Below are positions 122-57,496 of a stretch of DNA of 64,000 bases, one piece after another. A model generated the notes under the pieces. It saw only the letters and a list, made by a program, of their open reading frames with translations, was not told where the DNA came from and searched no databases. Position 1 is the stretch's first letter. Each line of letters begins with the position of its first letter. The DNA is from Escherichia coli (GTDB lineage: Bacteria > Pseudomonadota > Gammaproteobacteria > Enterobacterales > Enterobacteriaceae). The position numbers were made by a program, and so were the translations under genes. The stretch is taken from assembly GCF_003334765.1 (NCBI RefSeq), contig NZ_QOWT01000008.1; one strand, 5' to 3'.

Positions 122-1734
<1,613 letters not shown>

Positions 1735-1865: not shown

Positions 1866-3332
1866 ATGCTACGTATCGCTAAAGAAGCTCTGACGTTTGA
1901 CGACGTTCTCCTCGTTCCTGCTCACTCTACCGTTCTGCCGAATACTGCTGACCTCAGCACCCAGCTGACGAAAACTATTCGTCTGAATATCCCTATGCTT
2001 TCCGCAGCAATGGATACCGTAACGGAAGCGCGCCTGGCTATTGCTCTGGCTCAGGAAGGCGGTATCGGCTTTATCCACAAAAACATGTCCATTGAACGCC
2101 AGGCAGAAGAAGTTCGCCGTGTGAAAAAACACGAATCTGGTGTGGTGACTGATCCGCAGACTGTTCTGCCAACCACGACGCTGCGCGAAGTGAAAGAACT
2201 GACCGAGCGTAACGGTTTTGCGGGCTATCCGGTCGTTACCGAAGAAAACGAACTGGTGGGTATTATCACCGGTCGTGACGTGCGTTTTGTTACCGACCTG
2301 AACCAGCCGGTTAGCGTTTACATGACGCCGAAAGAGCGTCTGGTCACCGTGCGTGAAGGTGAAGCCCGTGAAGTGGTGCTGGCAAAAATGCACGAAAAAC
2401 GCGTTGAAAAAGCGCTGGTGGTTGATGACGAATTCCACCTGATCGGCATGATCACCGTGAAAGACTTCCAGAAAGCGGAACGTAAACCGAACGCCTGTAA
2501 AGACGAGCAAGGCCGTCTGCGTGTTGGTGCAGCGGTTGGCGCAGGTGCGGGTAACGAAGAGCGTGTTGACGCGCTGGTTGCCGCAGGCGTTGACGTTCTG
2601 CTGATCGACTCCTCCCACGGTCACTCAGAAGGTGTACTGCAACGTATCCGTGAAACCCGTGCTAAATATCCGGATCTGCAAATTATCGGCGGCAACGTGG
2701 CAACAGCTGCAGGTGCACGCGCTCTGGCAGAAGCTGGTTGCAGTGCGGTTAAAGTCGGCATTGGCCCTGGCTCTATCTGTACAACTCGTATCGTGACTGG
2801 CGTCGGTGTTCCGCAGATTACCGCTGTTGCTGACGCAGTAGAAGCCCTGGAAGGCACCGGTATTCCGGTTATCGCTGATGGCGGTATTCGCTTCTCCGGC
2901 GACATCGCCAAAGCTATCGCCGCTGGCGCAAGCGCGGTGATGGTAGGTTCCATGCTGGCGGGTACTGAAGAATCTCCGGGTGAAATCGAACTCTACCAGG
3001 GCCGTTCTTACAAATCTTACCGTGGTATGGGTTCCCTGGGCGCGATGTCCAAAGGTTCCTCTGACCGTTATTTCCAGAGCGATAACGCTGCCGACAAACT
3101 GGTGCCGGAAGGTATCGAAGGTCGCGTAGCCTATAAAGGTCGCCTGAAAGAGATCATTCACCAGCAGATGGGCGGCCTGCGCTCCTGTATGGGTCTGACC
3201 GGCTGTGGTACTATCGACGAACTGCGTACTAAAGCGGAGTTTGTACGTATCAGCGGTGCGGGCATTCAGGAAAGCCACGTTCACGACGTGACCATTACTA
3301 AAGAGTCCCCGAACTACCGTCTGGGCTCCTGA
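1866..3332 (+). CDS. guaB: IMP dehydrogenase
   Basis: ORF track 1797..3332; start reset to [18 protein letters not shown] (488 aa); CBS pair and catalytic [11 protein letters not shown] loop present. Confidence 0.95.
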
Positions 3333-6646: not shown

Positions 6647-6856
6647 AAAAGGTTCCTTGAAGTATGTCCCACGCTGTGGACGGTACTTACATTAAGGCAC
6701 AACAGGACAAAATGGTCAATTCTTCGTTATGTAAAAAAGCGTCAGTGGATACATATTTTAATGTTATGGAAGTTAATTTAATTATTTACAATGATGATGT
6801 AATAATGATGAATTAACATGATAAACGTAATAATTCATTAATCAGGGTTATTTTGT

Positions 6857-6870
6857 TTGATATATATCAA
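6857..6870 (+). promoter_or_regulatory. FNR-type box TTGATATATATCAA upstream of pdeF
   Basis: Perfect match to TTGAT-N4-ATCAA, about 130 bp upstream of the pdeF ATG in an AT-rich divergent region. Confidence 0.6.
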
Positions 6871-6997
6871 TTGGTACTTTCATATGACACTTAGAATCAA
6901 TGCTCTCTATAGTGATGAATAATCATCATTCGAAGTCAGGTGGGATGCCTGTCTGAATACACCTCCTTCAGGATGTGGGGGATTCTGCTGAGCATCT

Positions 6998-21120: not shown

Positions 21121-21155
21121 CAGCCCGACGAACTGTTTCGCCGGGCTGATTTTTC
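21121..21155 (+). terminator. Rho-independent terminator after perM
   Basis: CAGCCCGACG-aactgtttcg-CCGGGCTG followed by ATTTTT; abuts the focB stop on the other strand. Confidence 0.55.
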
Positions 21156-22002
21156 AGGGTTCCTGACGTAAATAAATAGCCCGATAACACATACTCACCA
21201 GCACCGCACCGCCGATAATATTACCCAGCATCACCGGGAGCAGATTGGCGGTAATAAAATGGCTGACCGTCAGTGCCGGAAAATTGTCTGCGCTACTGTG
21301 CGCCAGCTGCCAGAAGGGGGGAGGGGCGAAATGGCGAATGGCAATGGCGAACGGAATCACAAACAAATTGGCGATACAGTGCTCAAAGCCACTGGCGACA
21401 AACAGGGTGATGGGCAAAATCATGGCGACGATTTTGTCGCATAACGAACGCCCGCAATAACTCATCCACAGCGCCAGGCAAACCATCAGATTGCACATAA
21501 TGCCGAGGCTGACAGATTCAGTAAATGTATGATGCATTTTGCCCTCGGCGCAGTGTAAAACCGCGACTCCCCACATCGCGTTTTCACTCATCACCAGCCC
21601 GGAAAACCAGATTAACAAACTGAAACAGGCAATACCTGCCAGATTACCGCAGGCCACCAGAAGTGCGTTAATCAGCCAAGTTCGCCAACTAATAACGCCC
21701 CGACTTTTTGCCATCACCGTCATTACCGACGAGGTGAACAGGCTGGTGCCGCAAACCGCCAGCAAAATAAAGCCGAGTGTAAAGCAAAGGCCGCCCACCA
21801 GATGGGTTAATGCCTGTGAAGACGGGGCATCGGCGATAACGGAAAGGTAAAAAGTAAATCCGATCGCCATAAACACGCCAGCGGACATCGCCATTAAAAA
21901 GACCGACACTTTACTGCGGGCAATTTTATGGGCGGCAATCCGTTCAGCGATTGCCGCTTTTCTGGCGCTCAACTGCAAGTCGAAAGAGAGTTTGTTTCTC
22001 AT
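21154..22002 (-). CDS. focB: Formate channel FocB (FNT family)
   Basis: 282-aa membrane ORF directly downstream of hyfR; FNT-family TM pattern. Confidence 0.9.
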   Translation of the reverse strand: MRNKLSFDLQLSARKAAIAERIAAHKIARSKVSVFLMAMSAGVFMAIGFTFYLSVIADAPSSQALTHLVGGLCFTLGFILLAVCGTSLFTSSVMTVMAKSRGVISWRTWLINALLVACGNLAGIACFSLLIWFSGLVMSENAMWGVAVLHCAEGKMHHTFTESVSLGIMCNLMVCLALWMSYCGRSLCDKIVAMILPITLFVASGFEHCIANLFVIPFAIAIRHFAPPPFWQLAHSSADNFPALTVSHFITANLLPVMLGNIIGGAVLVSMCYRAIYLRQEP

Positions 22003-22023
22003 GCATACTCCTGCAAAAGCAGA

Positions 22024-24036
22024 TTACAACACCTCGCGAACCGAGATCCCCAGCCGCTGCATTCGTGACAGCAGCGTGGTGCGCTTCATCCCTAATCGCG
22101 TCGCTGCGCCACGGGGCCCGGCAACAATGCCATTGGTTTCTCGCAATACCTGAACAATGCGCTGACGTTCTTCTTCGTCATTCTCTGGCGTCGTCGGGTG
22201 CAGTAACTGCGCCATTGAACTGCGAAGCGCTGAATCTTCATTTAGCGTCGGCAGTAAACGGCTTTGTCGGACATTTAGATGTAAATTCAGACTGTTACCA
22301 CGAGTCAACAGTACCGCCCGCTCAATCACGTTTTCCAGCTCGCGCACGTTGCCCGGCCAATCCCACGACATCAACTGGCGTAGTGCCTCGGTCGGGATGG
22401 CGTCAATTGCGCGATTCATATGGCGCGCCATTTTTTGCGTGAAATGTTTTGCTAAAAGAGGGATATCTTCCGGACGGTCGCGTAGCGGCGGCAATTCCAG
22501 TGGGAAGACATTCAGGCGATAAAAGAGATCGCTGCGAAACTGGCGATCTTCAACCATTTGCCACAAATCACGGTTGGTGGCGGCAATGACTCTGACATTC
22601 ACCGGGATCGTTCTACTCCCGCCGAGACGCTCAATCTCCCGCTCCTGCAATACGCGCAGCAGTTTAGGCTGAAGTTCTAACGGCAGATCGCCAATTTCAT
22701 CGAGAAACAACGTGCCGCCATCGGCAATTTCAAAACGACCACGATGGGTATTAATCGCACCAGTAAACGCCCCTTTGTCATGACCGAATAACTCACTTTC
22801 CAGAAGACTGGCGGGGATGGCAGCGCAGTTGATTTTGACCAGCGGCTTGTCGCGTCGCGGGCTAAGTTGATGGATCGCTCTGGCGATCACCTCTTTGCCA
22901 GTTCCGGTTTCACCACAAATCAACACCGTACTGTCGCTCTTCGCCACAATATCTACCTGCTGGAGCAGGTCTTCCATTGCCTGGCTTTGATAGATAATGT
23001 CACCGATGCCCAGATTCGAAAGGAGCTGCTCGCTAAGCTGGTGGTTTTCTTGCTGCAAACTTTCCTGCAAATCGGTCATGCTACGCCAGGCATCGGCATT
23101 GCCAACGGCAATAGCGATGCGATCGGCTATGTGTTGTAGTAGCTGGCAGTTTTCCTCACTAAAGAGAGTGGAAGAGGTATGCGCCAGCAACAATGCACCC
23201 GGTGTATGGTTGCCAAAGGTAAGCGGTATAAGGAGCGCAGATTCGCAGCCGTTAGATGCAAGTAAGAGTAATAACGGGTCGCGTTGCCAGAGAAACAGAT
23301 CATCTGCACGGTGCGTCAAGGTCGGTTGTCGGGTTTGTAGCGTTTGTGTCAGCAATACACTTTCGCCAGGCATACAGCGTGGCAGACACGCACAATGTGA
23401 GGCAGAAAGATCGCTGCACCACAGGCTGAACTTCTCGTTCTTTCGATGATCGCCCAGTACCATACTGACTGAAGCCAGACCGAAAAAATGATGGATCTCA
23501 CGAGCGACGTCAGCGATCAGATCGTCGAGATCAAGATGTGACAGCACTGCATTAGTAATATCAACCAGTACCCGATGATGATCGCGATCTTTCTCCAGCA
23601 AACGCAGCGCCACCTGCTGTTCTTCATCATTGAGCCATGATTGCAGAACCGGGGTGATTATCCGCGCCAGCCAGTTAAACAGTGTGCAATCCTGGGAAGT
23701 AAAACGACTGCCGTGGGTGCGAATAAAGCGTAGCTCCGCCATTCCACTACTGCCGAGAAGGACGGCGTGACGCGAATAATCGACCATCTCGCCCTGATAC
23801 TCTGTTGTTGCCGTCACATCGCTGCCATCATCATGGTAGCGGTAATAGAAGTTGCTTTTGAGAACATGCAGTTCAATAAGTTGTACCGGGCTGAACGGCG
23901 GCGGCAGCGGGATGAAGGCGCGTAATAAAGACGCCTTGCCGTGTTTCTGTGCTAACCGCTCCGCGAGCATTCCGTTTACCGCTTCAATTGTTATTCCTTG
24001 TGGCGGGGCAAACATCGCCTCGTCTGACATAGCCAT
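22024..24036 (-). CDS. hyfR: Sigma54-dependent transcriptional activator HyfR (GAF, AAA+, HTH)
   Basis: ORF track 22024..24039; GESGTGKE and GAFTGA sigma54-interaction motifs; start set to the second Met for 670 aa. Confidence 0.9.
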
Positions 24037-24065
24037 CAACAGTCCTTATTAATGAGAAATCCTTC

Positions 24066-24479
24066 TCACGCAATTTTTCTGGCCATCAGATAGATGGCCG
24101 GTTCCTGCACAATTTCATCCAACAGATGAATGAATTGAATGCTACGCGCCTGCCACACAGACGTCGCGTCATCCGCCAGTGGCGCGAATGCCCGGGTCAA
24201 CAGGGCGGTGTGGCTGGCGTCAATAACAATCTCACCAAAAGTCATCACCCCCAGCATCTTACGTCGGGCTTGCTCCTCTTCGACCAGTGCAAGCCAATCT
24301 TCGTATTCCGTCAGTGGGCAGCGGAAGGCGACATTCAGACAATCAATCACGCCAACGTGATGGCCGATAGCTAGCGAGTAATACATTACCTGAGAGCTGT
24401 GTTCCGGCATCTCGTCGCTACTGGCGACAAACTTTTTTCGCAGCGTCCAGAAAACAATTTCCCCGCACTCTTCAGTCAT
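24066..24479 (-). CDS. hyfJ: Hydrogenase-4 component J (HycH-like maturation factor)
   Basis: ORF track 24066..24542; start reset to [11 protein letters not shown] (137 aa), overlapping the hyfI stop. Confidence 0.8.
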
Positions 24480-25230
24480 GTAACCCCCGGAGTACGCGAA
24501 AGAGTTGCTGAACGATACTATTGAGACGTGGATCGTCGGCATCGCGCAACCAGGTGTTAACCCGATTTCCTGTAGGAGCGTCGCTTAAATGGCGCAGGAG
24601 CCGATCGCAAATTTCTCGCCCCTGACGATAGCCCGCCAGCCGCCGCGCTTCTCGCTCAATGGCGATACGCTGTGATGGCGGGATCTGCGGCCACAACGGT
24701 TGCATAGTCACCCCGGTGGGATCGCGATAATCCACAGCGTGAATCTTCTGTTGCAGCAAACCGAGCGCCACGGCGAAACCGTGAATGGTGGCGGCCGGTG
24801 TTGGCGGGCAGCCGGGGATCCAAACATCAATGGGGACAATGGTGTCGCTACCGCCCCAGACGCTGTAGAGATCGTGGAAAATACCGCCGCCGACACCGCA
24901 CGCGCCGTAGGAAACACAAATTTTATGATCGGGGGCAGACTCATACGCCCGAAGTGCAGGCATACGCATCGCCCGGGTGACTGCGCCAGTAAATAACAAA
25001 ATATCGGCGTGACGCGGTGATGAAACAACCTTAATGCCAAAACGTTCTGCGTCGAATACTGGTGTAATGGCAGCAAAAATTTCGATTTCACAGGCGTTGC
25101 AGCCGCCGCAATCGACGCGATAAACGTAAGCCGAGCGACGGATATCCTGTAGCAAATGCCGCTTCATCTTTTGCGTTTGCTCGTCCAGCGTGATGGGCTG
25201 GCTGACATGTTGTGTAAGCACTGGACTCAT
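24472..25230 (-). CDS. hyfI: Hydrogenase-4 small subunit (NuoB-like, Fe-S)
   Basis: 252-aa ORF with conserved Cys ligands characteristic of NuoB/HycG family. Confidence 0.9.
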
Positions 25231-25772
25231 AGCTGCTCCTTAGCCACCAGCAGTACATCTGTATCGTCGTTGATCAGCGTCGCGCGTTGTTTGCATTCCG
25301 GGCAGACGCTCGCTTGCGCCCACAACATTTCGCGGTTTTGTGGCGCATTTTGTTGCTGTGCTAACAATTCAGCAGCCAGTGCGATGGTTTTTTGCGGGGC
25401 AAACGGGCGTTCGCAACGGCTGCAACGTTGTAGATGGAACGTCGCGCGGGTATAGAGATCGGCTTTATTGGTGACGGTCAGTTCAAAGTTATTGGTAAGC
25501 TGGATGGCTCTGGTCGGGCACACTTCTTCACAACGTCCGCAGTAAATACAACGCCCCAGATAGAGCTGCCAGGTGCGCGAATTTTGCTGGTCGTCGGTCT
25601 GGATAGTCAGCGCATTTGCCGGACAAGCACAGGCGCAGGCACCGCAGGCAATACATTGGCTGGGCATCAGGTCCGGTTTTCCGCGAAAGCCAGGGCTGAC
25701 CTCCAGTGGCGCGAAGGGATATTTCACCGTCGCGGTTCCGGCGCGCATAATAGTTTTCAGTAACTTCAGCAT
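25227..25772 (-). CDS. hyfH: Hydrogenase-4 ferredoxin-like subunit (2x[4Fe-4S])
   Basis: 181-aa ORF with two CxxCxxCxxxCP motifs. Confidence 0.9.
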
Positions 25773-25781
25773 CTTCTGTCC

Positions 25782-27449
25782 TTACTTCAGCGGCGAACGG
25801 TTACGATCAATGCCGTAGCGTTCGATCTCTTTATACGGCACGGTTTTTGACTGGCGCTTGCGCACATCTACCAGCGTCACACGGTCGGTACAGGAGTAGC
25901 AGGGATCAAGGCTACCGATAATCAGCGGTGCGTCAGAAACGGTATTGCCGCGCAGCATGTAACGCAACACCGGCCAGTTGGCGTAGGTGGCGGCACGGCA
26001 GCGCCAGCGGAACAATTTTTGGTTATCACCGAGCATGCTCCAGTGCACGTCTTCACCGCGTGGCGCTTCAACAAAGCCCAGCGCGAATGCGTGAGGTTTA
26101 TAGCTAAAGCCTTCGGTCAGCAGTGGGGTATCCGGCATGTTGTCGAGGGCAAATTCCAGCATTGCCAGCGAATCAAACGTCTCTTTGACACGGACCATCA
26201 CGCGGGAGAAAACATCGCCGCCGGTAAAGGTAAACAGTGTTTTTGGAATATTGCCGTAGTCGGCGTAGGGGTGATCAAAGCGCAAATCACGGGCGATTTG
26301 TCGGTCGAGAATGCCAATGCCCTGAGTGCGTTGTTCCATATTCGGCGTAGCAAGCAGCATCTCTACCAGCTCCGACACGTCGGCGCGCATCTCGCGCACC
26401 AGTTTCAGCGTTTGCAGACGTTGCTCTTTGAGAATATCGCGGCGAACACCACCAATCAGATTCAGACCGTAGGTTTTACGCGACCCGATCAGCAATTCCG
26501 CCATCGTCATCGACTTTTCCCGCACGCGGAAAAATTGCATAAAGCCGGTATCAAAACCAACGAAATGGCAGGAGAGGCCAAGGTTAAGCAAATGACTGTG
26601 TAGCCGTTCGACTTCCAGCAGAATCGAGCGAATAGTATGTGCTCGTTGCGGCACCTCAATCCCCAGTGCATTTTCAACCGAATTGGTATAGGCCACACTG
26701 TGGGCAAAACCGCAAATCCCACACACGCGGTCCGATAAGAAGGTCACTTCGTTGTAGCCCATCCGCGTTTCTGCCAGTTTCTCCATGCCGCGATGGACAT
26801 AAAACAGGCGGTAATCAGCATCGACAATTTGCTCGCCATCCACAAACAAGCGGAAGTGACCCGGTTCATCGGAGGTGATATGCAGCGGGCCGACAGGGAT
26901 CACCCGCGCATCGCTGTTGCCCTCATTGATAAACGGATACGTTTCGGAATCAGTCGTCGGTTCAGGGCGCAGTCGATAATCCATCGCATCTTTGCGCAGC
27001 GGATGCATATCTTCCGGCCAGTCATCGGGCAACACCAGGCGACGCTGATCCGGCAGGCCAACCGGAATCAGCCCGTACATATCGCGAATTTCTCGCTCGC
27101 CCCAGACCGCGGCAGGGACGCGCGGTGTGACTGACGGAAACTCCCGACTGTCGGCATCGACCAGCGCCTTCACCACAATCCAGCATTTTTCGGCCCCTTC
27201 CATTGAAAGGGCATAATAAACCGCGTAATGACCGTTAAGTGTCCGCTCGTCGTTGCCAAACAGGACCGGAAGCCAGCCATCATGTTGATAATAAAGATAC
27301 TGTACAACGTCAGGCAGCAGATTGATTTTCACCGCAATGGTGACCTGTTCAGGCGTTTGTCGCTCTTCATCCAGCACCGCGCCGGGGAACTGCGTTTTCA
27401 GGGCGGCGAGAATCGCTTCGCCACGATTTGACGATGAATTAACGTTCAC
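25782..27449 (-). CDS. hyfG: Hydrogenase-4 [NiFe] large subunit
   Basis: ORF track 25782..27494; start reset to GTG at 27447-27449 preceded by GGAG (555 aa); C-terminal DPCYSCTDR Ni-binding motif. Confidence 0.9.
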
Positions 27450-29019
27450 TGTGTTTCTCCGAAACAGATGCGGTGCCTGAAGGCAAAAAATCATGCCAGG
27501 TGCTACGTTGTGCAGGCAGATCGTGCGTCCCTGAGAGGACTATAGTGGAAGCGCCCGCCAGGATCCTGATGACAGGTTGTGGAATATGCGTTCCCATCGC
27601 CAGCATCATGACCAGCAGAATCACCATTGGCGAGGTGGTCAACCAGCCGAGATCACCCCGGTTAACGGCCTGCGGCGGTTTCGCCATTAACACCCGCGCA
27701 GCCATCCGTACCAGGCCCGCCAGCACCAGCGTTAACAGCAATAACAGCAGGACGATAATCAGCAGGTGATTACGTGCCAGTCCGGCGGTAATGGTCATAA
27801 ATTCGCTAAGAAAAATGTTGAAGGGCGGCATCCCTGCCAGCGCCAGCGCACCGCCGCCAAACAGCACGGCGGTAAATGGCATGATTTTGAGCATCCCACA
27901 GACGACGTTGAGATCGCGCGTGCCGTACTTGAGCAGTACATTGCCGGAACCGCAGAACAGCAGCGTTTTTGCCAGACTGTGGTTTAAGATGTGCAGCAGC
28001 GCGGCAAAAATTCCCAGCGGCCCGCCAATGCCTAGCTCCACCGCGACCAGCCCCATGTTCTCCACGCTGGAGTACGCCAGCAGACGCTTAATGTCCCGCT
28101 GTACCAGAATGAAAAATGCCGCCACGGCAACCGACAACATGCCGAAGATGAGCAACAACCGGTTGGGGAAATCGCTGCCGATGGCTTGGCAAATAATGAT
28201 GTAATAGCGAATCAGCACCAACAGCGCGCAGTTCAGCAATACGGCGGAGAGCAGGGCGCTGACCGGACTCGGCGCTTCACTGTGAGCATCCGGCAGCCAG
28301 GCGTGCATGGGAAATAGCCCGGTTTTGGTACCAAAGCCAATTAGCAAAAACACAAAGGCCAACAGCATTAATGTTGGGTCAAGCAAGGACGATTGCTTAA
28401 GAACCTCGCTCCAGAATATCGCCATTTCTGCCTGCGGCATAACGCTGGCGGCGTTGGCGTATACCAGCACGGTACCGAACAGACCAAAAGCGACACCAAC
28501 AGTACAAATAATGATGTACTTCCATGCAGCTTCCAGCGATGAACGCTGACCGTAAATGCCTACCAGAAACGCCGAGCTTAAGGTGGTGGCTTCGATCGCC
28601 GCCCACATCACAATCAGGTTATTGCTGGTAACAACCAGCAGCATGGTGAACAAAAACAGATGGAAGAAACCGTAGTAATCGCACAGCGTAACGGGTGAAA
28701 GCTCGCCGTGTGCCACTTCATGACGCATGTAGCCAATCGAGTAAATACCGGTGAGAAAGCCAATCACACCAAGAATGGCGAGGAACAAACCGCCCAGACC
28801 ATCAATATGAAGCCACAGTCCCGCAGCGAATATTTCTCCTGCATCAGCGGCAGTTTGGACCACCCAGAGTGCCAGAATCAGCAGCAGTATGATCCCTAAG
28901 CTATGTAATACGGTCACCGTGCGAGTCGCAGAAAGTCTCCGTTTCCGGCAGGCAAAACAGAGCAGCGAAAAAAGCAGCGGCGTGAGCAGGAGTAAAGCGA
29001 ACATCACAGAATAACTCAT
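27439..29019 (-). CDS. hyfF: Hydrogenase-4 membrane subunit F (NuoL/M/N antiporter-like)
   Basis: 526-aa polytopic membrane ORF. Confidence 0.9.
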
Positions 29020-29023
29020 CTCA

Positions 29024-29674
29024 TTATCCCTTCAGCGCGGTCAAGTTGTTCACGTCCAGCGTGCCGTGGGTACGCCATATTTTTCTTGCCAGTAACACCA
29101 TCACAATGACGGCGAAGATGGCGTCGGTAGCGATACCTATTTCCACCAGTTCCGGTGCTCGCCAGGCAAGAAGCGCCAGCACCAGATGGGAGCCGTTTTC
29201 CATCAGGCAGTAACCAAAAATTTGCCGCAGGATATTGCGCTGGCTGACAATGCACAGCAGGCCAAGCAGAAAATGACCTAACGCTACCGCCAGCGCCGGT
29301 TTCAGCCCGGTAGCCATCGGTAGCTTCACGGGCTGAACGACAAATGCGCAAAGCAGGACAATTAACGCCGCGAGCAGTGCCATCATTGCCGGACCGAATA
29401 ACGCTTTTTCCGGGATGTTCTGGGGAATATTTCGTGCAGCGTAAGTCATGATTAACGGTACCAGCAGCACTTTGGTGATAAAGGCGCTGGCGGACCAGAT
29501 CAGCAGTTGCTCTGCGGCGAACAGGCACGAGAGAGTGGCGAAAATAGACACCAGCACCAGTGACTGGCAGGCGTAAAATCCGCATGACAGGCGATAGCTT
29601 TTGACGCTAATCACAAACAGCGATGTCAGCATCATCAGTCCCGCCAGATTATTTACGATCATAGAACCGGTCAT
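29024..29674 (-). CDS. hyfE: Hydrogenase-4 membrane subunit E
   Basis: 216-aa hydrophobic ORF. Confidence 0.88.
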
Positions 29675-29685
29675 TCATCATCTCC

Positions 29686-31125
29686 TTACTGCAACCAGGT
29701 CGCGGCGATTACGCTGGAAATCAGCGACATCACAATCAGTACAATCAACACCAGGCGCATTGATCCTGGCAGCGGTGCGGCATCGGCGACGGCCTCGCTC
29801 GGTTTGCCAGGCACAACGCGACCAAACCAGCGAATAAACCAGGCGAAACTGGCGACCGATTCAATCATCAGAAGAATCATGGCGGGCAGCAGGATCCAGT
29901 ACTCCACTGACAACGCAAAACCGGCAGCAAACAGCGGGAATTTACTGAAGAAGCCGTTGAACGGCGGCACGCCGGTAATCGCCAGCGCTGCCACGCAGAA
30001 ACCCACGCCTGGCAACGGCAGGGTGTGCAATACGCCACGCAGACGCGGCAACAAGCGCGTGCCGCAGCTGTAACTCAGCGCACCTGCTACAAGGAAAAAC
30101 AGGCTTTTAGCGAACGCGTGGTTGACGATGTAGGCGATGCTGCCCTCCAGCGCCAGCCGCGAGCCGAAGATGGAGAGCGACAAGCCGAAGAACATCCAGC
30201 CAAGTTGAGTGATGGTCGACCAGGCTAGCAACCGCTTCATATCCTGCTGTGGCAAATACATCAGAAAGCCATAAAGAATGGTGACCAGTGCCATGACCAT
30301 GCCAACGCCGCCAATCACATGCGGGATATTGCCGCCGTCGATAATAGCGCGGGCAAAAATGTAAACGCCCACTTTCACCATCGATGCGGCGTGGAGATAG
30401 GCGCTGATCGGTGTTGGCGCTTCCATTGCGTCCGGTAGCCACGCTTGCATCGGTAGCTGGGCCGATTTCCCCCACGCGGCAAACAGGATGCCGCCATAAA
30501 CCAGATAACGTGCGTCGCCGTGTAACTCGCTCATCGCGCTAAGCGCAAACGTTCCGGTCTGCAAAAACAGCGTGGCGGCGGCAAGATACAACCCCAACGA
30601 GCCGATATGAGTGATAAGTAACGCTTTTAGTGCTGAACGCTGCGCTTTATCGCTCTGGTAATAACTGATCAACGCCCAGGAGCAGCCGCCTGTAATTTCA
30701 AAAAACAACAACTGACCGAGCAGCGTCGAGGAGAGTACCAGTCCCGCCATCGCGCCGATAAACACCAGTAAAAATGCGTAATAACGATTCGTGCCGTTAT
30801 GCGGGTGTTCGCGATTTTTATCCGTCAGATAACCCGTGGAGTAGATCGTGACCAGCAAACCGAGAAACACCACCACAAACAGAATCAGCGTACTCACGCG
30901 ATCAATGACCAGGCCAAACAACGCCACATCCCCCACGTTGACCAACGTCAACGTGACGGCAACTTTATCGGCCTGATAAAACGCGGAGATCAGTGACAAC
31001 ATGCACAGCGTGGTCAGCGCGGCGAACAAAACCCCCCATTCGGCGGCCCGACGTTGTGGCGAAAACGAAACGACCAGTGCGCCGATAAAAGGCAGCAATA
31101 ACGTCGTCAGAGCAAGATTTTCCAT
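29686..31125 (-). CDS. hyfD: Hydrogenase-4 membrane subunit D (antiporter-like)
   Basis: 479-aa polytopic membrane ORF. Confidence 0.9.
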   Translation of the reverse strand: MENLALTTLLLPFIGALVVSFSPQRRAAEWGVLFAALTTLCMLSLISAFYQADKVAVTLTLVNVGDVALFGLVIDRVSTLILFVVVFLGLLVTIYSTGYLTDKNREHPHNGTNRYYAFLLVFIGAMAGLVLSSTLLGQLLFFEITGGCSWALISYYQSDKAQRSALKALLITHIGSLGLYLAAATLFLQTGTFALSAMSELHGDARYLVYGGILFAAWGKSAQLPMQAWLPDAMEAPTPISAYLHAASMVKVGVYIFARAIIDGGNIPHVIGGVGMVMALVTILYGFLMYLPQQDMKRLLAWSTITQLGWMFFGLSLSIFGSRLALEGSIAYIVNHAFAKSLFFLVAGALSYSCGTRLLPRLRGVLHTLPLPGVGFCVAALAITGVPPFNGFFSKFPLFAAGFALSVEYWILLPAMILLMIESVASFAWFIRWFGRVVPGKPSEAVADAAPLPGSMRLVLIVLIVMSLISSVIAATWLQ

Positions 31126-31141
31126 ATTCCGTCAGTGCTCC

Positions 31142-32089
31142 TTACAGACCGGTTAACCAGAAGACCCATGCAAGCGCAGCAAGGCTGAAGCCAAGCCAGG
31201 TCACATGGTGAATGAGTAAAAAACGCCCGCGTGCCAGCGTGTTTTCTGCGATTGAGGCCAGTACAAAAATCAGCAAAACCTTGAGCAGCGTAACGACAAG
31301 TGAAGTCAGCAGGCAGGCGAGAGAAAGTTCTTGCGCGCGCCCAAAGGGCAGAAACAGGGCCACAAACAGTGATGCCATCACGACCTGTTTCAGCCCCAGC
31401 CCCCATTTCGCTAGCGCCAGCCCGGCACCGGAATATTCGGTCAGCGGGCCTTCCTGTAATTCCTGTTCTGCTTCAGCAACATCAAAGGGAATTTTTCCCA
31501 TCTCAATGAAGCAGGCAAAACCACAGGCCAGTAACGCCAGTACGGTGGTTAGCGGCGAGTTCCAGCCCATCGCCAGCGTATTGCTGATCATCTCGATATG
31601 CGTGGAACCTGCTATCAGCGCCAATACCAGCAGTGAGAGAATAAGCATTGGTTCGACCAGAATGCCGAGCGTCAACTCGCGACTGGCACCGACTCCCGCA
31701 AACGGACTTCCGGTATCCAGCCCGGAAAGAGCAAAGAAAAAACGAAACAGGGCAAGAAGATAGATAAGGGTGATCAGATCGCCGCCGCCCGCAAAAGGGG
31801 AAACGGTAATAAACAGTGGTAAGGCCATCGCCAGCACCAGCATGCTGCTGATTAATACCCACGGCATCAGGCGGAACATCAGACCTGAAGATGTCGGCGC
31901 AACTTCCTGGCGTTTAAACAGTTTGTGGATATCGCGATAATCCTGCCAGATCCCCGGCCCGCGGCGGGAGTGCATACGCGCGCGTATCTGCCGGGAAATA
32001 CCCGTAAAAAGTGGGGTTAGCATCAGCAGAATCACGGCCTGTGCTAACGCAAAAATGACCAGATATCCGTCGCAAAGAGTTTGTCTCAT
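31142..32089 (-). CDS. hyfC: Hydrogenase-4 membrane subunit C (NuoH-like)
   Basis: ORF track 31142..32110; start reset to MRQTLCDGYLVIF (315 aa). Confidence 0.88.
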   Translation of the reverse strand: MRQTLCDGYLVIFALAQAVILLMLTPLFTGISRQIRARMHSRRGPGIWQDYRDIHKLFKRQEVAPTSSGLMFRLMPWVLISSMLVLAMALPLFITVSPFAGGGDLITLIYLLALFRFFFALSGLDTGSPFAGVGASRELTLGILVEPMLILSLLVLALIAGSTHIEMISNTLAMGWNSPLTTVLALLACGFACFIEMGKIPFDVAEAEQELQEGPLTEYSGAGLALAKWGLGLKQVVMASLFVALFLPFGRAQELSLACLLTSLVVTLLKVLLIFVLASIAENTLARGRFLLIHHVTWLGFSLAALAWVFWLTGL

Positions 32090-32099
32090 GGTGATTTCC

Positions 32100-34118
32100 T
32101 TAGACGGCAATAGCGATTAGCAGCACAACCAGTGCGGCGACCACATACAGGCAATAGAGACGAAAGTCGCCGCTTTGCAGATGCTGTATTTCTTTGGCCA
32201 GCCGTTGGGTGGCGCTCACGATGGGGCGGATCACCCGCTCATCCCAGAAGGGTTCTGTGCTCTGAGCCCTGGCGGTGACGTGCGCAAGACCTTTATTTAG
32301 CCTCAGCGTAGGGTCGAGCTGTTGTCGTAGACGAAATAGCGCAGAAAAGACCACACGCAGCGGCTGCATCACGCCATTGCCTGACGGGGCCATCGCATTT
32401 TCCCAGCCGTAGCCGCATGCCCAGGCATCTCCTGTGCGACGAAACGCTGCGCGGCGCGAACGACACCACAGCCAGTAAAGGCCAGGCAGCAAAGGCATCG
32501 CCAGTAGTAACAGCAACAGTAATGAGGGGGTGACCTGTGTATGAAACGTGCCGGGTACAAGTGCTATTCCGCTGGCGACAGTGGCGGGAGGGGTATTGGT
32601 AAACGCATGGGCAATATGCATTATCTTCGGTGCCAGCCAACTGGCACTAAGCGCAATTAATACGCAGAGTGCCGCGAGCAGTAGCATGGCGACGATCATC
32701 GTATTTGGCACTTCCTGTGCCTCTTCAGCGTGTGTACTGCGCGGCGCACCACAGAAAGTAATACCGTACATTTTTACGAAGCACATTACTGCCAGCCCAC
32801 CAGTGACTGCCAGCATTACCATAGCAATAGGACCCGCAAGTTGTAGCGCTACGGCTTCCACACGACTTAGTGAGAACAGCGACTGCCAGGTGTACCATTC
32901 GCTGATAAAACCATTCAGCGGAGGAATGGCTGATATCGCGAGGCAACCAATCAGGCATGCTGCGGCTGTCCACGGCATCCGTTTCGCTAGTGCCCCCATT
33001 TTTTCCATGTCGTGGGTATGCAAACGCGAAATAATCGCTCCCGCGCCGAGAAATAGCAGCCCTTTGAACAGCGCATGGTTGAGCAGATGAAACAGTGCGC
33101 CGAGCAGTCCAACCACGGTGAGCAGCGGGTCGTGCAGTGACAGACCGACCATCGCCACACCGACTGCCAGCAAAATAATGCCGACGTTTTCGACGGTACT
33201 CCAGGCCAGCAGCCGTTTGATATCCTGTTCCGCCAGCGCATATAGCACGCCCAGGAGCGCGGAGATTGCGCCGATCGCCATCACCAGAATGCCCCACCAC
33301 AGAGGCAAACCCGTTTGCGCCAGCAGATCCATCGCTACTTTCAGGATGCCGAAAATACCTATTTTGACCATTACGCCAGACATCAACGCCGAAGCGTGCG
33401 ATGGTGCGGCAGGGTGAGCGCGCGGCAACCAGCTGTGCAACGGCATCATCCCGGCTTTCGCGCCAAAACCGAAAAAGGCCAGCAGGAACACCGCCGACGC
33501 CAGCCCCGGAGAAAGTGAAAGCGTGCGGAAACTGGCAAAATCGAGGCTGCCGCTTTCGCGCCCCATCAGCAAGAAGGCGATCATTATCAGCACCGATCCG
33601 GCGTGGGCGATAAAAAAGTAGAGCATGCCAGCGTTGATCGACGTTTTATCCTGCCTGGCAATGACCAGAAACCAGGAAGACAGCGACATCATTTCAAACA
33701 GCACGATGAACCAAAAAGCGTTGTCCATCACCAGCAGGGCAACCATCGATGCGATGAAAATATTCATAAAGAAGCCCATCGCCGCCGCGCCTTTGCCCTC
33801 GTATTCGCGCATATAAGTCAATGAATAGAGAGAACAAACCACCACCAGCAAGGAGATAACCAGCACCATAAATGCCGAGAGGCTATCCATTCGCAGGGTT
33901 AAATCGGCAAATTCAAAAGGGGTGGCAAAACGGGCGACTAAAGTTACACCAGCATGTAATTGCGTAATTCCGCTGATGATGCCAATCACGCCGCCCACCA
34001 GCGATGTGATGCCGGAAAGCTTAATAGCCAGTCTGTCCAGACCGAGTAAAAACAGCGAAGCCAGACTAGCAAACAGATAGAGAATCAGCGACCAGGTTAA
34101 TAATTGCAGGGCATCCAT
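32100..34118 (-). CDS. hyfB: Hydrogenase-4 membrane subunit B (NuoL-like antiporter-like)
   Basis: 672-aa polytopic membrane ORF; start overlaps the hyfA stop. Confidence 0.9.
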   Translation of the reverse strand: MDALQLLTWSLILYLFASLASLFLLGLDRLAIKLSGITSLVGGVIGIISGITQLHAGVTLVARFATPFEFADLTLRMDSLSAFMVLVISLLVVVCSLYSLTYMREYEGKGAAAMGFFMNIFIASMVALLVMDNAFWFIVLFEMMSLSSWFLVIARQDKTSINAGMLYFFIAHAGSVLIMIAFLLMGRESGSLDFASFRTLSLSPGLASAVFLLAFFGFGAKAGMMPLHSWLPRAHPAAPSHASALMSGVMVKIGIFGILKVAMDLLAQTGLPLWWGILVMAIGAISALLGVLYALAEQDIKRLLAWSTVENVGIILLAVGVAMVGLSLHDPLLTVVGLLGALFHLLNHALFKGLLFLGAGAIISRLHTHDMEKMGALAKRMPWTAAACLIGCLAISAIPPLNGFISEWYTWQSLFSLSRVEAVALQLAGPIAMVMLAVTGGLAVMCFVKMYGITFCGAPRSTHAEEAQEVPNTMIVAMLLLAALCVLIALSASWLAPKIMHIAHAFTNTPPATVASGIALVPGTFHTQVTPSLLLLLLLAMPLLPGLYWLWCRSRRAAFRRTGDAWACGYGWENAMAPSGNGVMQPLRVVFSALFRLRQQLDPTLRLNKGLAHVTARAQSTEPFWDERVIRPIVSATQRLAKEIQHLQSGDFRLYCLYVVAALVVLLIAIAV

Positions 34119-34735
34119 TAGCGTTGCTCCTGAGTGAGGGAAAGGGGATCCTCCCCGCCATTGGCAAACCAGCTTGCGGCAAGGCGCTGTTTTTCTTTCA
34201 TCTGACGTTGCAGGCTATCACCGGTGATCAGCCGTAACGCCTGATTCGGGCAAGCGCGAACGCAGGCCGGACCTTCTGGCAAGAAATCACACAGGTCGCA
34301 TTTCACCGCGACGGTCTGGACACCAGGTTCCCAGCGCAGCAAAGCATGTTGTGTTGGCGCGTTTTCTTCGCCGTCTTTGAGTGAGCCTTCAGCCTGAAAA
34401 ACATATTGCGCATGGGCATTCACCGGACGGCTTCCTGAAGCGCTGATTGCGCCAAATGGGCAGACCACGGCGCAAAGCTTGCAGCCAATACAGAGGCTTT
34501 CGTTGAGTTGGATCGCATCATCCCTCTGAGAGATGGCATTGACCGGGCAGACCTGCAGGCAAGGGGCTTCCTCACAGTGATGACACACGACAGGGGCAGT
34601 GATTGTTGACGTCTTCGCCAGGGCCAGGCGCGGGTGTTGCTGTAAACCTTGCGTTTTATGCACGTCCGAACAGGCAGCGAGACAGGTATTACATCCTGTA
34701 CACCACAGTGGTTCGGCCACCACAAAGCGGTTCAT
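34118..34735 (-). CDS. hyfA: Hydrogenase-4 4Fe-4S ferredoxin subunit A
   Basis: ORF track 34118..34774; start reset to MNRFVVAEPLWCTGCNTC (205 aa) with AAGGAG 5 nt upstream; four Cys clusters. Confidence 0.9.
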   Translation of the reverse strand: MNRFVVAEPLWCTGCNTCLAACSDVHKTQGLQQHPRLALAKTSTITAPVVCHHCEEAPCLQVCPVNAISQRDDAIQLNESLCIGCKLCAVVCPFGAISASGSRPVNAHAQYVFQAEGSLKDGEENAPTQHALLRWEPGVQTVAVKCDLCDFLPEGPACVRACPNQALRLITGDSLQRQMKEKQRLAASWFANGGEDPLSLTQEQR

Positions 34736-34776
34736 GTCGGCTCCTTGAAAATGATATGAAACATTGCATTTCATAT

Positions 34777-34792
34777 TGCATAAAGGATGCCA
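34777..34792 (-). promoter_or_regulatory. Sigma54 (-24/-12) promoter of the hyf operon
   Basis: Minus strand reads TGGCATCCTTTATGCA against consensus TGGCACG-N4-TTGCA; GG and GC correctly spaced; about 45 nt upstream of the hyfA ATG; fits a HyfR-activated operon. Confidence 0.65.
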
Positions 34793-34917
34793 TTCTGATT
34801 AACTCAATATATTCAATAAGTTATGTATTAACTGGATTCTGAACGGTACAAAAATGATGGTCATTAACGTTCAGCAAAAAATGGATTCGACACCCGTGTC
34901 GCAGGGGAAAGCGAGAA

Positions 34918-34933
34918 TGTGATCTTGATCACG
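34918..34933. promoter_or_regulatory. CRP-like palindrome TGTGATCTTGATCACG
   Basis: Close match to TGTGA-N6-TCACA, about 150 bp upstream of the sigma54 element, between the bcp 3' end and hyfA. Confidence 0.45.
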
Positions 34934-34987
34934 AGAAGTGAGGTATGCTGGCCGCAAGCGCAGCCAGCACGGAATGGAGCAAAGTAA

Positions 34988-35458
34988 TCAGGCGTGTTCT
35001 TTCAGCCAGTTCAGCACAACGTCGTGGTGATTGCTGGTTTTGAAATCGTCAAAGACATGTTCGATTTTGCCATCAGCGTCAATCAGGAAGCTGATGCGAT
35101 GAATGCCATCGTAGGTTTTGCCCATGAAGGACTTTTCACCCCAGACGCCGAATTGTTCGCACACCTGGTGGTCCTCATCAGACAGGAGCGTAAAGTTAAG
35201 CAGCTCTTTTTCCGCAAAACGGGAGAGTTTTTCGGGTTTATCGGTGCTGATACCCAGCACATCAACGCCCGCTTTTTTCAACTCATCCATGTTATCGCGT
35301 AAGCCGCAGGCCTGTACGGTACAGCCGGGGGTCATGGCTTTCGGGTAGAAATAAACCAGAACACGCTGTCCCTGGAAGTCGGTCAAATTAACTTGTTCTC
35401 CGTCTTGATCCGGCAAGCTAAATTTCGGTGCGATATCACCGGCTTTCAGTGGATTCAT
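34988..35458 (-). CDS. bcp: Thiol peroxidase Bcp (peroxiredoxin)
   Basis: 156-aa ORF MNPLKAGDIAPKFSLPDQDGE... with peroxidatic Cys in the TPGCT motif. Confidence 0.93.
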   Translation of the reverse strand: MNPLKAGDIAPKFSLPDQDGEQVNLTDFQGQRVLVYFYPKAMTPGCTVQACGLRDNMDELKKAGVDVLGISTDKPEKLSRFAEKELLNFTLLSDEDHQVCEQFGVWGEKSFMGKTYDGIHRISFLIDADGKIEHVFDDFKTSNHHDVVLNWLKEHA

Positions 35459-50410: not shown

Positions 50411-52390
50411 ATGAATCGTTTTATTATGGCCAACAGTCAGCAATGTCTGGGTTGTCATGCTTGTGAAATCGCCTGTGTCATGGCTCACAATGATGAGCAA
50501 CATGTCCTGAGCCAACACCATTTTCATCCCCGAATTACGGTTATCAAACATCAACAGCAACGTAGTGCAGTGACCTGTCACCATTGTGAAGATGCGCCCT
50601 GCGCCCGTAGCTGCCCTAATGGCGCAATCAGCCACGTTGATGACAGCATTCAGGTCAATCAGCAAAAGTGTATTGGCTGTAAATCCTGCGTGGTGGCCTG
50701 TCCTTTTGGTACGATGCAAATCGTCCTGACACCCGTCGCGGCAGGAAAAGTAAAAGCCACGGCGCATAAATGCGACCTTTGTGCGGGGCGCGAAAACGGT
50801 CCTGCCTGTGTTGAGAATTGCCCGGCGGACGCGCTGCAACTGGTCACTGACGTCGCACTCTCCGGCATGGCGAAATCCCGCCGCTTGCGCACCGCGCGTC
50901 AGGAACATCAACCGTGGCATGCCAGTACCGCGGCGCAAGAAATGCCGGTAATGAGTAAAGTCGAACAAATGCAGGCAACGCCCGCGCGTGGCGAGCCGGA
51001 TAAACTGGCGATTGAAGCGCGCAAAACCGGTTTTGATGAAATTTATCTGCCATTTCGCGCCGACCAGGCACAACGGGAAGCCTCGCGCTGCCTTAAGTGC
51101 GGCGAGCACAGCGTTTGTGAATGGACCTGCCCGCTGCATAACCATATACCGCAGTGGATTGAACTGGTGAAAGCCGGAAACATCGACGCCGCCGTCGAGC
51201 TTTCTCACCAGACCAACACCCTGCCGGAAATTACCGGACGCGTTTGTCCGCAAGACCGTTTGTGTGAAGGTGCCTGTACTATTCGCGATGAGCACGGCGC
51301 GGTAACTATCGGCAACATTGAACGCTACATTTCAGATCAGGCGTTGGCGAAAGGTTGGCGTCCTGACTTAAGCCATGTCACCAAAGTGGACAAGCGGGTG
51401 GCGATTATCGGTGCAGGTCCGGCAGGGCTGGCCTGTGCGGATGTTCTGACCCGCAATGGCGTGGGGGTGACGGTGTACGATCGCCATCCAGAAATCGGTG
51501 GCTTGCTCACTTTCGGCATTCCTTCTTTCAAACTGGATAAATCCCTGCTGGCACGCCGTCGGGAAATCTTCAGCGCGATGGGGATTCACTTCGAACTCAA
51601 TTGTGAAGTGGGTAAAGATGTCTCTTTGGATTCGCTTTTGGAACAATACGACGCGGTCTTCGTTGGCGTAGGCACTTACCGTTCCATGAAAGCGGGTTTA
51701 CCCAATGAAGATGCGCCGGGCGTTTATGACGCGCTGCCGTTCCTCATTGCCAACACTAAACAGGTGATGGGGCTCGAAGAGCTACCGGAAGAGCCGTTTA
51801 TCAATACCGCCGGACTTAACGTCGTGGTACTGGGCGGCGGCGACACCGCGATGGACTGTGTGCGTACCGCACTGCGCCACGGCGCGAGTAACGTCACCTG
51901 CGCTTATCGTCGTGATGAAGCTAACATGCCAGGCTCGAAGAAAGAAGTGAAGAACGCCCGCGAAGAGGGGGCCAACTTCGAATTTAACGTCCAGCCGGTG
52001 GCGCTTGAGCTGAATGAACAAGGTCACGTCTGCGGGATTCGTTTCCTGCGCACGCGTCTTGGAGAGCCGGATGCCCAGGGGCGTCGGCGTCCAGTGCCGG
52101 TGGAAGGCAGTGAATTTGTCATGCCAGCCGACGCGGTGATTATGGCGTTTGGCTTCAATCCGCACGGGATGCCGTGGCTGGAGTCGCACGGTGTAACGGT
52201 AGACAAATGGGGCCGCATCATCGCGGATGTGGAAAGCCAGTACCGTTACCAGACCACCAATCCGAAAATCTTCGCTGGTGGTGACGCCGTGCGTGGTGCG
52301 GATCTGGTGGTTACCGCAATGGCAGAAGGACGTCATGCGGCACAGGGGATTATTGACTGGCTGGGGGTAAAATCAGTCAAATCTCACTGA
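50411..52390 (+). CDS. aegA: Fe-S / FAD-NAD(P) oxidoreductase AegA (ferredoxin domain fused to GltD-like domain)
   Basis: 659-aa ORF with N-terminal multi-Cys ferredoxin motifs and C-terminal GxGxxG dinucleotide-binding region. Confidence 0.9.
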   Translation: MNRFIMANSQQCLGCHACEIACVMAHNDEQHVLSQHHFHPRITVIKHQQQRSAVTCHHCEDAPCARSCPNGAISHVDDSIQVNQQKCIGCKSCVVACPFGTMQIVLTPVAAGKVKATAHKCDLCAGRENGPACVENCPADALQLVTDVALSGMAKSRRLRTARQEHQPWHASTAAQEMPVMSKVEQMQATPARGEPDKLAIEARKTGFDEIYLPFRADQAQREASRCLKCGEHSVCEWTCPLHNHIPQWIELVKAGNIDAAVELSHQTNTLPEITGRVCPQDRLCEGACTIRDEHGAVTIGNIERYISDQALAKGWRPDLSHVTKVDKRVAIIGAGPAGLACADVLTRNGVGVTVYDRHPEIGGLLTFGIPSFKLDKSLLARRREIFSAMGIHFELNCEVGKDVSLDSLLEQYDAVFVGVGTYRSMKAGLPNEDAPGVYDALPFLIANTKQVMGLEELPEEPFINTAGLNVVVLGGGDTAMDCVRTALRHGASNVTCAYRRDEANMPGSKKEVKNAREEGANFEFNVQPVALELNEQGHVCGIRFLRTRLGEPDAQGRRRPVPVEGSEFVMPADAVIMAFGFNPHGMPWLESHGVTVDKWGRIIADVESQYRYQTTNPKIFAGGDAVRGADLVVTAMAEGRHAAQGIIDWLGVKSVKSH

Positions 52391-57270: not shown

Positions 57271-57496
57271 AGGAAATACTCCTTGAAAAGTAAAGTGTTA
57301 GATGAGTGCGTTAATTCACACTTCTGAGAAATTTCGCTAAACGCATCAAAAAAGCATAGCAGACAGGCATGGTATTGCTGGATTAAGCAGGTAACATCAG
57401 TGTTATAGGATTATTACCAAAACATTATATTAATGGTGAGAGTTTGGACTTGCTCAAAGTCTGTAGACTCCGGCAGGGTAATAATGTGCGCCACGT

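Follow-up and report, generated by a model that had tools for sequence, protein, structure and literature searches.

At Class I and Class II sigma70 promoters, such as lac (CRP site at -61.5) and galP1 (-41.5), CRP sites obey positional rules, being centred at -41.5 (Class II) or at -61.5, -71.5, -82.5 or -92.5 (Class I). At melAB, malK/malE and araBAD, which also have sigma70 promoters, CRP is bound at a fixed helical phase upstream of a second activator (MelR, MalT and AraC, respectively) and improves occupancy or architecture. A sigma54 promoter, by comparison, needs ATP hydrolysis by an enhancer-binding protein, so that activation of open complex formation by CRP through alpha-CTD or alpha-NTD is not directly applicable. 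At most of the other sigma54 promoters studied, including glnAp2 and dctA, CRP acts negatively, activation being the less common outcome; Tian in 2001, Wang in 1998 and Mao in 2007 reportedly found that CRP bound far upstream inhibits glnAp2, glnHp2 and, in E. coli, Rhizobium dctA. In the prp system, transcription of the activator gene from its sigma70 promoter is likewise driven by the single CRP site of the divergent region, and the CRP effect is exerted partly through the supply of PrpR.

In the window (the whole stretch of 64,000 nucleotides of E. coli DNA that was analysed), a CRP-like palindrome, TGTGATCTTGATCACG, occupies exactly 34918..34933 in the minus-strand bcp-hyfA spacer; the DNA is of the E. 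coli K-12 type, and this region, lying on the minus strand, is 100% identical to that of MG1655 over the query. In the direction of hyf transcription the palindrome reads CGTGATCAAGATCACA and is centred at -160.5 from the hyfA transcription start. It is a real CRP site of hyf and is already catalogued, being the same object as the hyfAp CRP site at -160.5 in the RegulonDB and EcoCyc entries for E. coli K-12, with 16-mer, spacer, orientation and distance all identical. The sequence-only reading, which had proposed a CRP site tying hyf expression to catabolite state, was thus right, and the RegulonDB activator entry, genomic SELEX and ChIP-seq in enterotoxigenic E. coli (ETEC) all support the idea, although it is not new.

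How the hyf site relates to the described systems can be stated as follows. With the Class I and II promoters it shares the protein and the recognition sequence, and the CRP-induced bend and the activating regions are presumably available at hyf; however, at -160.5 of a sigma54 promoter, the box falls outside the Class I and II positions. The nearest analogue is prpBCDE, also an E. coli sigma54 promoter for which RegulonDB records CRP as an activator (at -103.5, and at -71.5 relative to the divergent prpR), and in both cases a specialised catabolic or fermentative operon is tied to catabolite state. Unlike prp, hyf has no divergent gene, hyfR being located 11 kb downstream in the same operon. 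The promoters glnAp2, glnHp2 and dctA resemble hyf in having CRP far upstream and no Class I or II geometry, but the effect there is inhibitory, whereas activation is recorded for hyf. The arrangement at melAB, malK/malE and araBAD differs from that at hyf in the sigma factor, and we know of no described contact between CRP and a protein of the FhlA/HyfR type. With its entries in RegulonDB and EcoCyc and its earlier detection by SELEX and ChIP-seq, the site has no discovery value; hyf is, however, among the very few sigma54 promoters with CRP recorded as an activator, and the value that remains lies in the mechanism.

Self, Hasona and Shanmugam (J Bacteriol, 2004) are said to have found that optimal hyf-lacZ expression needs CRP-cAMP; the activator label of the box rests on RegulonDB and on the abstract of that paper. 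Published binding data come from Shimada 2011 (PMC3105977) and Haycocks 2015. In the former, the RegulonDB list of CRP sites (Table S4) gives hyfABCDEFGHIJR-focB as activated from -160.5, with the core CGTGATCAAGATCACA lying within ...TCTCGTGATCAAGATCACATTC..., and genomic SELEX-chip with purified cAMP-CRP produced a peak in the bcp>/>hyfA spacer at 2.59903 Mb with the box TGTGATCTTGATCACG (Table S3); of the known CRP targets, genomic SELEX recovered 92, hyfA among them (Table 1). In an EcoCyc-based enrichment table (PMC5155068), the heading 'Regulated by CRP-cAMP' includes hyfR, which belongs to the same operon. The checks named in the sequence-only reading have for the most part been made already. 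CRP ChIP-seq, one of them, is available for ETEC H10407, where a high-confidence peak upstream of hyfA carries the motif CGTGATCAAGATCACA, i.e. the same 16-mer (Table 1, Haycocks 2015). These cells were grown aerobically in fructose medium, in which hyf is essentially silent, and the peak shows occupancy rather than regulation; the in vivo evidence for occupancy consists of these aerobic ETEC data, no CRP ChIP data for K-12 having been found. Taking binding and recorded activation together, we consider it very probable that the box is a genuine, high-affinity site for a cAMP-CRP dimer and that this dimer positively co-regulates hyfA transcription from its sigma54-dependent promoter.

The palindrome could instead be an FNR site (TTGAT-N4-ATCAA family) serving anaerobic control of hyf. 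Expression of hyf is anaerobic and an influence of FNR was suggested by earlier work, GTGATCAAGATCAC agrees with the FNR consensus at 8 of 10 positions, and Myers et al. 2013 (PMC3688515) predicted this palindrome as an FNR site, at 2599026, with a matrix score of 13.04. The same authors, however, classified this site as 'silent', with no FNR ChIP-seq peak in anaerobic growth. In addition, both E. coli half-sites have G/C at the position that separates CRP (GTGA) from FNR (TTGA), binding of CRP to the palindrome was shown directly by SELEX and ChIP-seq, and the corresponding Citrobacter box (see below) is a perfect CRP consensus. With no FNR occupancy in vivo, the FNR reading is largely refuted and we regard it as very unlikely.

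As for the match itself, the box has the two-fold symmetric TGTGA-N6-TCACA core, with 9 of the 10 core positions of TGTGATCTTGATCACG agreeing and the final A replaced by G, and the single mismatch described in the sequence-only reading is thereby borne out. The inner 14 bp, GTGATC-NN-GATCAC, form a perfect palindrome that also fits the extended CRP consensus; the 22-bp contact region extends over approximately 34915..34936, and two GATC (Dam) sites lie in the box. Matches to the CRP consensus with no more than one mismatch numbered 5 in the 64-kb window, as compared with 1.71 expected, and 3 of 100 shuffles reached this number. Using a weight matrix built from 61 other RegulonDB CRP sites, with the hyf box held out, the box scored 12.4 bits, which is the fourth best value in the 64 kb and above approximately 93% of the training sites, while about 0.73 matches as good are expected per random 64 kb. 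The sequence match alone therefore gives moderate support to a CRP site, and the case for a real one comes from the published binding data and the conservation across genera.

With about 0.7 to 1.7 sites of this quality expected by chance per 64 kb, and with no more than 55 bp between the bcp stop codon and the box, one could think of a chance palindrome, or of a part of the bcp terminator, to which no protein binds. This is refuted by the binding of CRP in vitro and in vivo, and the position of the box is conserved across three genera. Moreover, bcp has a 3' hairpin of its own at 34945..34970 (minus strand; GC-rich, with an 11-bp stem and a GCUU loop), which RNA folding shows to be separate from the CRP box, the latter not folding on itself in the minimum-energy structure; in two genomes lacking hyf, the hairpin is kept and half of the box is gone. 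We therefore give this explanation hardly any credence. The box was also rejected as an intrinsic terminator, having a loop of only 2 nt and no T run and not being formed in the minimum-energy fold. The 96-nt stretch containing the bcp hairpin folds at -31.2 kcal/mol (z = -4.8); because no U run follows the hairpin, bcp transcription may terminate poorly and could conceivably continue toward the hyf control region.

The bcp gene (34988..35458, minus strand) is separated by a 252-bp spacer from hyfA (34118..34735, minus strand), the first gene of the hyfABCDEFGHIJR-focB operon, which is followed by hyfB (32100..34118, minus strand); measured from the box, the bcp stop codon is 55 bp upstream and the hyfA ATG 190 bp downstream. 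An ORF of 671 aa between hyfJ and focB (22024..24039, minus strand) was identified as hyfR by position and size, and on the same grounds its product is assigned as a sigma54 activator of the FhlA-like, enhancer-binding type, the gene being situated at the end of the operon. The hyfA transcription start is placed at 34765 on the minus strand (box centre 34925.5 minus 160.5), 30 nt upstream of the ATG, which agrees with the position 30 bp upstream of hyfA that Skibinski et al. reportedly determined by primer extension in 2002. A sigma54 -24/-12 element, TGGCATCCTTTATGCA, is located at 34777..34792 on the minus strand. Going downstream from the box centre, it is 134 bp to the -24 GG and 160.5 bp to the start implied by RegulonDB, so that the earlier description of the palindrome as lying about 150 bp upstream of the sigma54 element is a fair one. 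The element was recognised from its sequence, from RpoN SELEX and from conservation, but a scan with the sigma54 consensus was uninformative (47 matches with 47 expected) and the assignment consequently rests on the latter two: in genomic SELEX with the RpoN holoenzyme, the bcp/hyfA spacer has a peak that ranks with the highest in the genome, at 92–100% (PMC8743547).

Genomic SELEX with the RpoD holoenzyme has assigned a 'constitutive' sigma70 promoter to the same spacer, with the predicted elements ATGACC-17-CAGAAT, the -35-like part of which overlaps a strongly conserved block (TGACCATCAYTTTTGT, see below). CRP may accordingly bind the box and serve this sigma70 promoter, or bind without regulatory effect, as is the case for many CRP ChIP peaks with no known regulatory output, and the dependence of hyf on crp would then be indirect, for example through hyfR, fhlA or the supply of formate. 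Yet a scan of 34650..35050 with the sigma70 consensus detected no promoter-like site, and conservation of the predicted -10 (CAGAAT) does not extend to Citrobacter or Kosakonia. Relative to the putative sigma70 start (near 34829), the box would be centred at about -96.5, a location not typical of Class I sites. Strict conservation of spacing is seen between the box and an enhancer-like repeat, and the RpoN SELEX signal in the spacer is one of the strongest in the genome (PMC8743547). Service to a sigma70 promoter, or binding without effect, thus appears unlikely, and co-regulation of the sigma54 promoter remains the preferred reading.

The enhancer-like repeat, CGACAC-GG-GTGTCG, is an inverted repeat at 34888..34901 on the minus strand, centred at about -129.5 and thus 31 bp downstream of the CRP box centre. 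Its CGACAC...TG(C/T)CG pattern is invariant in the E. coli, four Citrobacter and two Kosakonia sequences. Because CGACA/TGTCG pentamers also recur throughout the hycA-hypA spacer, the best-known FhlA target, we infer that the repeat is probably the HyfR/FhlA enhancer (upstream activating) site. The CRP palindrome contains no such pentamers and does not have the features of an FhlA/HyfR enhancer itself. A terminator scan flagged the CGACAC...GTGTCG repeat as its one terminator-like match, which is probably a false positive.

Between the repeat and the promoter lies the conserved block TGACCATCA(T/C)TTTTGT (34848..34863, minus strand; about -83 to -98). It is invariant at 15 of 16 positions in all seven aligned sequences, against a regional mean column identity of 73%, a degree of conservation equal to that of the sigma54 element. 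This block may be a site for IHF or another architectural protein. IHF ChIP-chip and Fis ChIP-seq signals overlap the region of the box and the block (Myers 2013, PMC3688515). As an IHF site the block TGACCATCAYTTTTGT was rejected, being a poor match, compared by eye, to the IHF consensus WATCAANNNNTTR. Another inverted repeat, CTGAACG-N23-CGTTCAG (about 34837..34873), was likewise discarded as a regulator site, its right arm not being conserved outside E. coli.

Within E. coli, the alignment of this region has a mean column identity of 99%, which is too little divergence to judge selection on the box. In strain CX05 the box reads CGTGACCAAGATCACA, with the base flanking the distal GTGA core changed and one GATC lost, indicating that a substitution is tolerated on the inner flank of the distal half-site; the enhancer repeat of this strain is also altered, with AACAC in place of GACAC. 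Outside E. coli, a protein-pattern scan covering one genome per species did not find hyfA in any other Escherichia species representative, and a degenerate DNA pattern for the HyfA N-terminus had no match in the one-genome-per-species collection. The latter result is explained by the Escherichia representatives having no hyfA and by the divergence of the nearest homologue (MNRFVVADPQWC, compared with MNRFVVAEPLWC in E. coli). The nearest HyfA homologues are those of Citrobacter amalonaticus (71% identity), three other Citrobacter (67–68%) and two Kosakonia (63%), and C. amalonaticus shares the dapA-gcvR-bcp-hyfA-hyfB neighbourhood.

In all six of these nearest non-E. coli loci, the top CRP-matrix match of the 400 bp upstream of hyfA is found at -186 to -191 from the ATG, the position in E. 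coli being -190. The boxes are TGTGATCGCAATCACA in C. amalonaticus, TGTGACTAATATCACA in the three other Citrobacter and TTTGACCGCGATCACA in the two Kosakonia; they score 11.3 to 15.0 bits, whereas the median best scores of control 400-bp windows from the same loci are about 5.4 to 6.4, and the Citrobacter box is a perfect CRP consensus. The box thus shows the conservation among orthologues expected of a CRP site. An alignment of the seven spacers upstream of hyfA (73% mean column identity) revealed discrete conserved islands, namely the CRP half-sites, the CGACAC-N3-TG(C/T)CG repeat, the TGACCATCA(T/C)TTTTGT block, TGGCA-N7-TGC (whose distance from the ATG is retained in Citrobacter and Kosakonia) and the ribosome-binding site. 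Within the box, the bases of the half-sites are kept and the promoter-proximal TCACA is invariant, while the inner 6 bp vary. In each of the seven sequences, the centre of the CRP box and that of the enhancer-like repeat are 31.0 bp apart, even though the 16 bp in between are unrelated in sequence; the other intervals drift, being 30–31 bp from repeat to block, 71–73 bp from block to GG and 53–57 bp from GG to ATG. These comparisons rest on four lineages, i.e. E. coli, C. amalonaticus, the Citrobacter NCU1 group and Kosakonia. No CRP box precedes the less closely related hyfA homologues of Atlantibacter, Morganella, Providencia, Dickeya, Pectobacterium and Serratia, in which sigma54 elements are present, and CRP control therefore appears to be specific to the bcp-linked hyf clade. 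The CRP box at the same place in Citrobacter and Kosakonia, the fixed 31-bp spacing and the decay of the box in two genomes lacking hyf (see below) are the new observations of this work.

The same comparison bears on the two GATC sites of the E. coli box. According to the literature, CRP consensus sites form a recognised group among the GATC-containing sequences and are sometimes under-methylated, and CRP bound at hyf might protect the box from methylation and thereby establish an inherited level of expression, as other CRP/Lrp-Dam systems do. The GATC sites, however, are not conserved, one being present in the box of C. amalonaticus and none in those of the other Citrobacter or Kosakonia; a methylation time-course paper flags a GATC in hyfR and not those in the box, and GATC is simply part of the best CRP consensus. 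A Dam-sensitive switch is thus highly improbable.

Approximately 21% of the complete E. coli genomes (1,128 of 5,426) match less than 80% of a 501-bp bcp-hyfA query, and every such genome listed in a spread sample matches only the bcp side of the query. Two of these hyf-less genomes were read, and in both bcp is directly followed by yfgO and bepA, the whole hyf-focB segment being missing. Relative to the window, this presence/absence segment corresponds to 21125..34938 (minus strand), with the BLAST homology of the hyf-less alleles ending at 34939 or 34934, just upstream of the CRP box in the hyf direction, and resuming at 21124. The two alleles (2626..2725 in loci L002 and L003) keep the bcp hairpin, the promoter-proximal half-site as TCACAT or TCAAAT and a degenerate enhancer repeat, CAACACTCGTTTC, while a 19-nt deletion has taken out the distal CRP half-site. 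At the junction of the large deletion is a GCTGAA(G) microhomology, which is present both upstream of hyfA and downstream of focB. Since these alleles are not clean and carry a decayed remnant of the control region, the absence of hyf represents a secondary loss, and the decay of the box after this loss, with the bcp hairpin intact, argues for a role of the box in hyf rather than bcp expression. Loss of the box in the two genomes fits a site that is maintained only while hyf is present.

From the arrangement of sites, a mechanism can be proposed. Without glucose, cAMP would be high and CRP would occupy its box at -160.5. HyfR or FhlA, as the enhancer-binding activator, is most likely held by the conserved CGACAC...TGYCG repeat, so that CRP would sit upstream of the activator at a distance of three helical turns (31 bp) and on the same face of the DNA. 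CRP most likely raises output either by stabilising assembly of the activator at the enhancer or, after looping of the enhancer onto the promoter, by adding a contact to the alpha-CTD of RNA polymerase. Expression of hydrogenase-4 would then need both a fermentative signal (formate, low pH and anaerobiosis, acting via HyfR/FhlA) and relief from catabolite repression. As the CRP site is upstream of the enhancer and not between enhancer and promoter, a simple IHF-like bending role does not apply. The exact 31-bp spacing in four lineages, with a diverged intervening sequence and other distances drifting by 1–4 bp, points to a stereospecific partnership of CRP with a sigma54 enhancer-binding protein, a suggestion that we put forward only tentatively. 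The fixed spacing would fit a direct contact between CRP and HyfR or FhlA, and equally a bridge between CRP and alpha-CTD formed only in the looped complex. To our knowledge, neither has been reported as a means of positive control by CRP at a sigma54 promoter. The fixed phasing to the enhancer-like repeat makes the mechanism directly testable. In laboratory strains of E. coli hyf is for the most part silent, and an understanding of its promoter's requirements is also relevant to attempts at activating hydrogenase-4 for hydrogen production.

Other sites of the CRP and FNR type were present in the window. The sequence at 1704..1719, TGTGAGCGAGATCAAA, is a known CRP site shared by guaBA (activator, -117.5) and xseA (repressor, +28.5), and was recovered by both SELEX and ETEC ChIP-seq. 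The reverse complement of the sequence at 50474..50489 (TGTGTCATGGCTCACA), i.e. TGTGAGCCATGACACA, belongs to an ETEC H10407 CRP ChIP-seq peak at (aegA)/narQ, and the sequence at 57305..57320, AGTGCGTTAATTCACA, is the CRP genomic SELEX box for the maeB/talA-tktB spacer. The top CRP-matrix match of the window, TTTGACGCTAATCACA (29600..29615; 13.0 bits), lies inside hyfE near its 5' end; it is not among the entries covering this region in the SELEX and ChIP-seq table excerpts consulted, and is possibly a non-functional intragenic match. Finally, TTTGATATATATCAAT at 6856..6871 includes a perfect FNR-type palindrome (TTGAT-N4-ATCAA) and is located in a 301-bp stretch annotated with pdeF (yfgF), an FNR-activated gene, and a small hypothetical gene.
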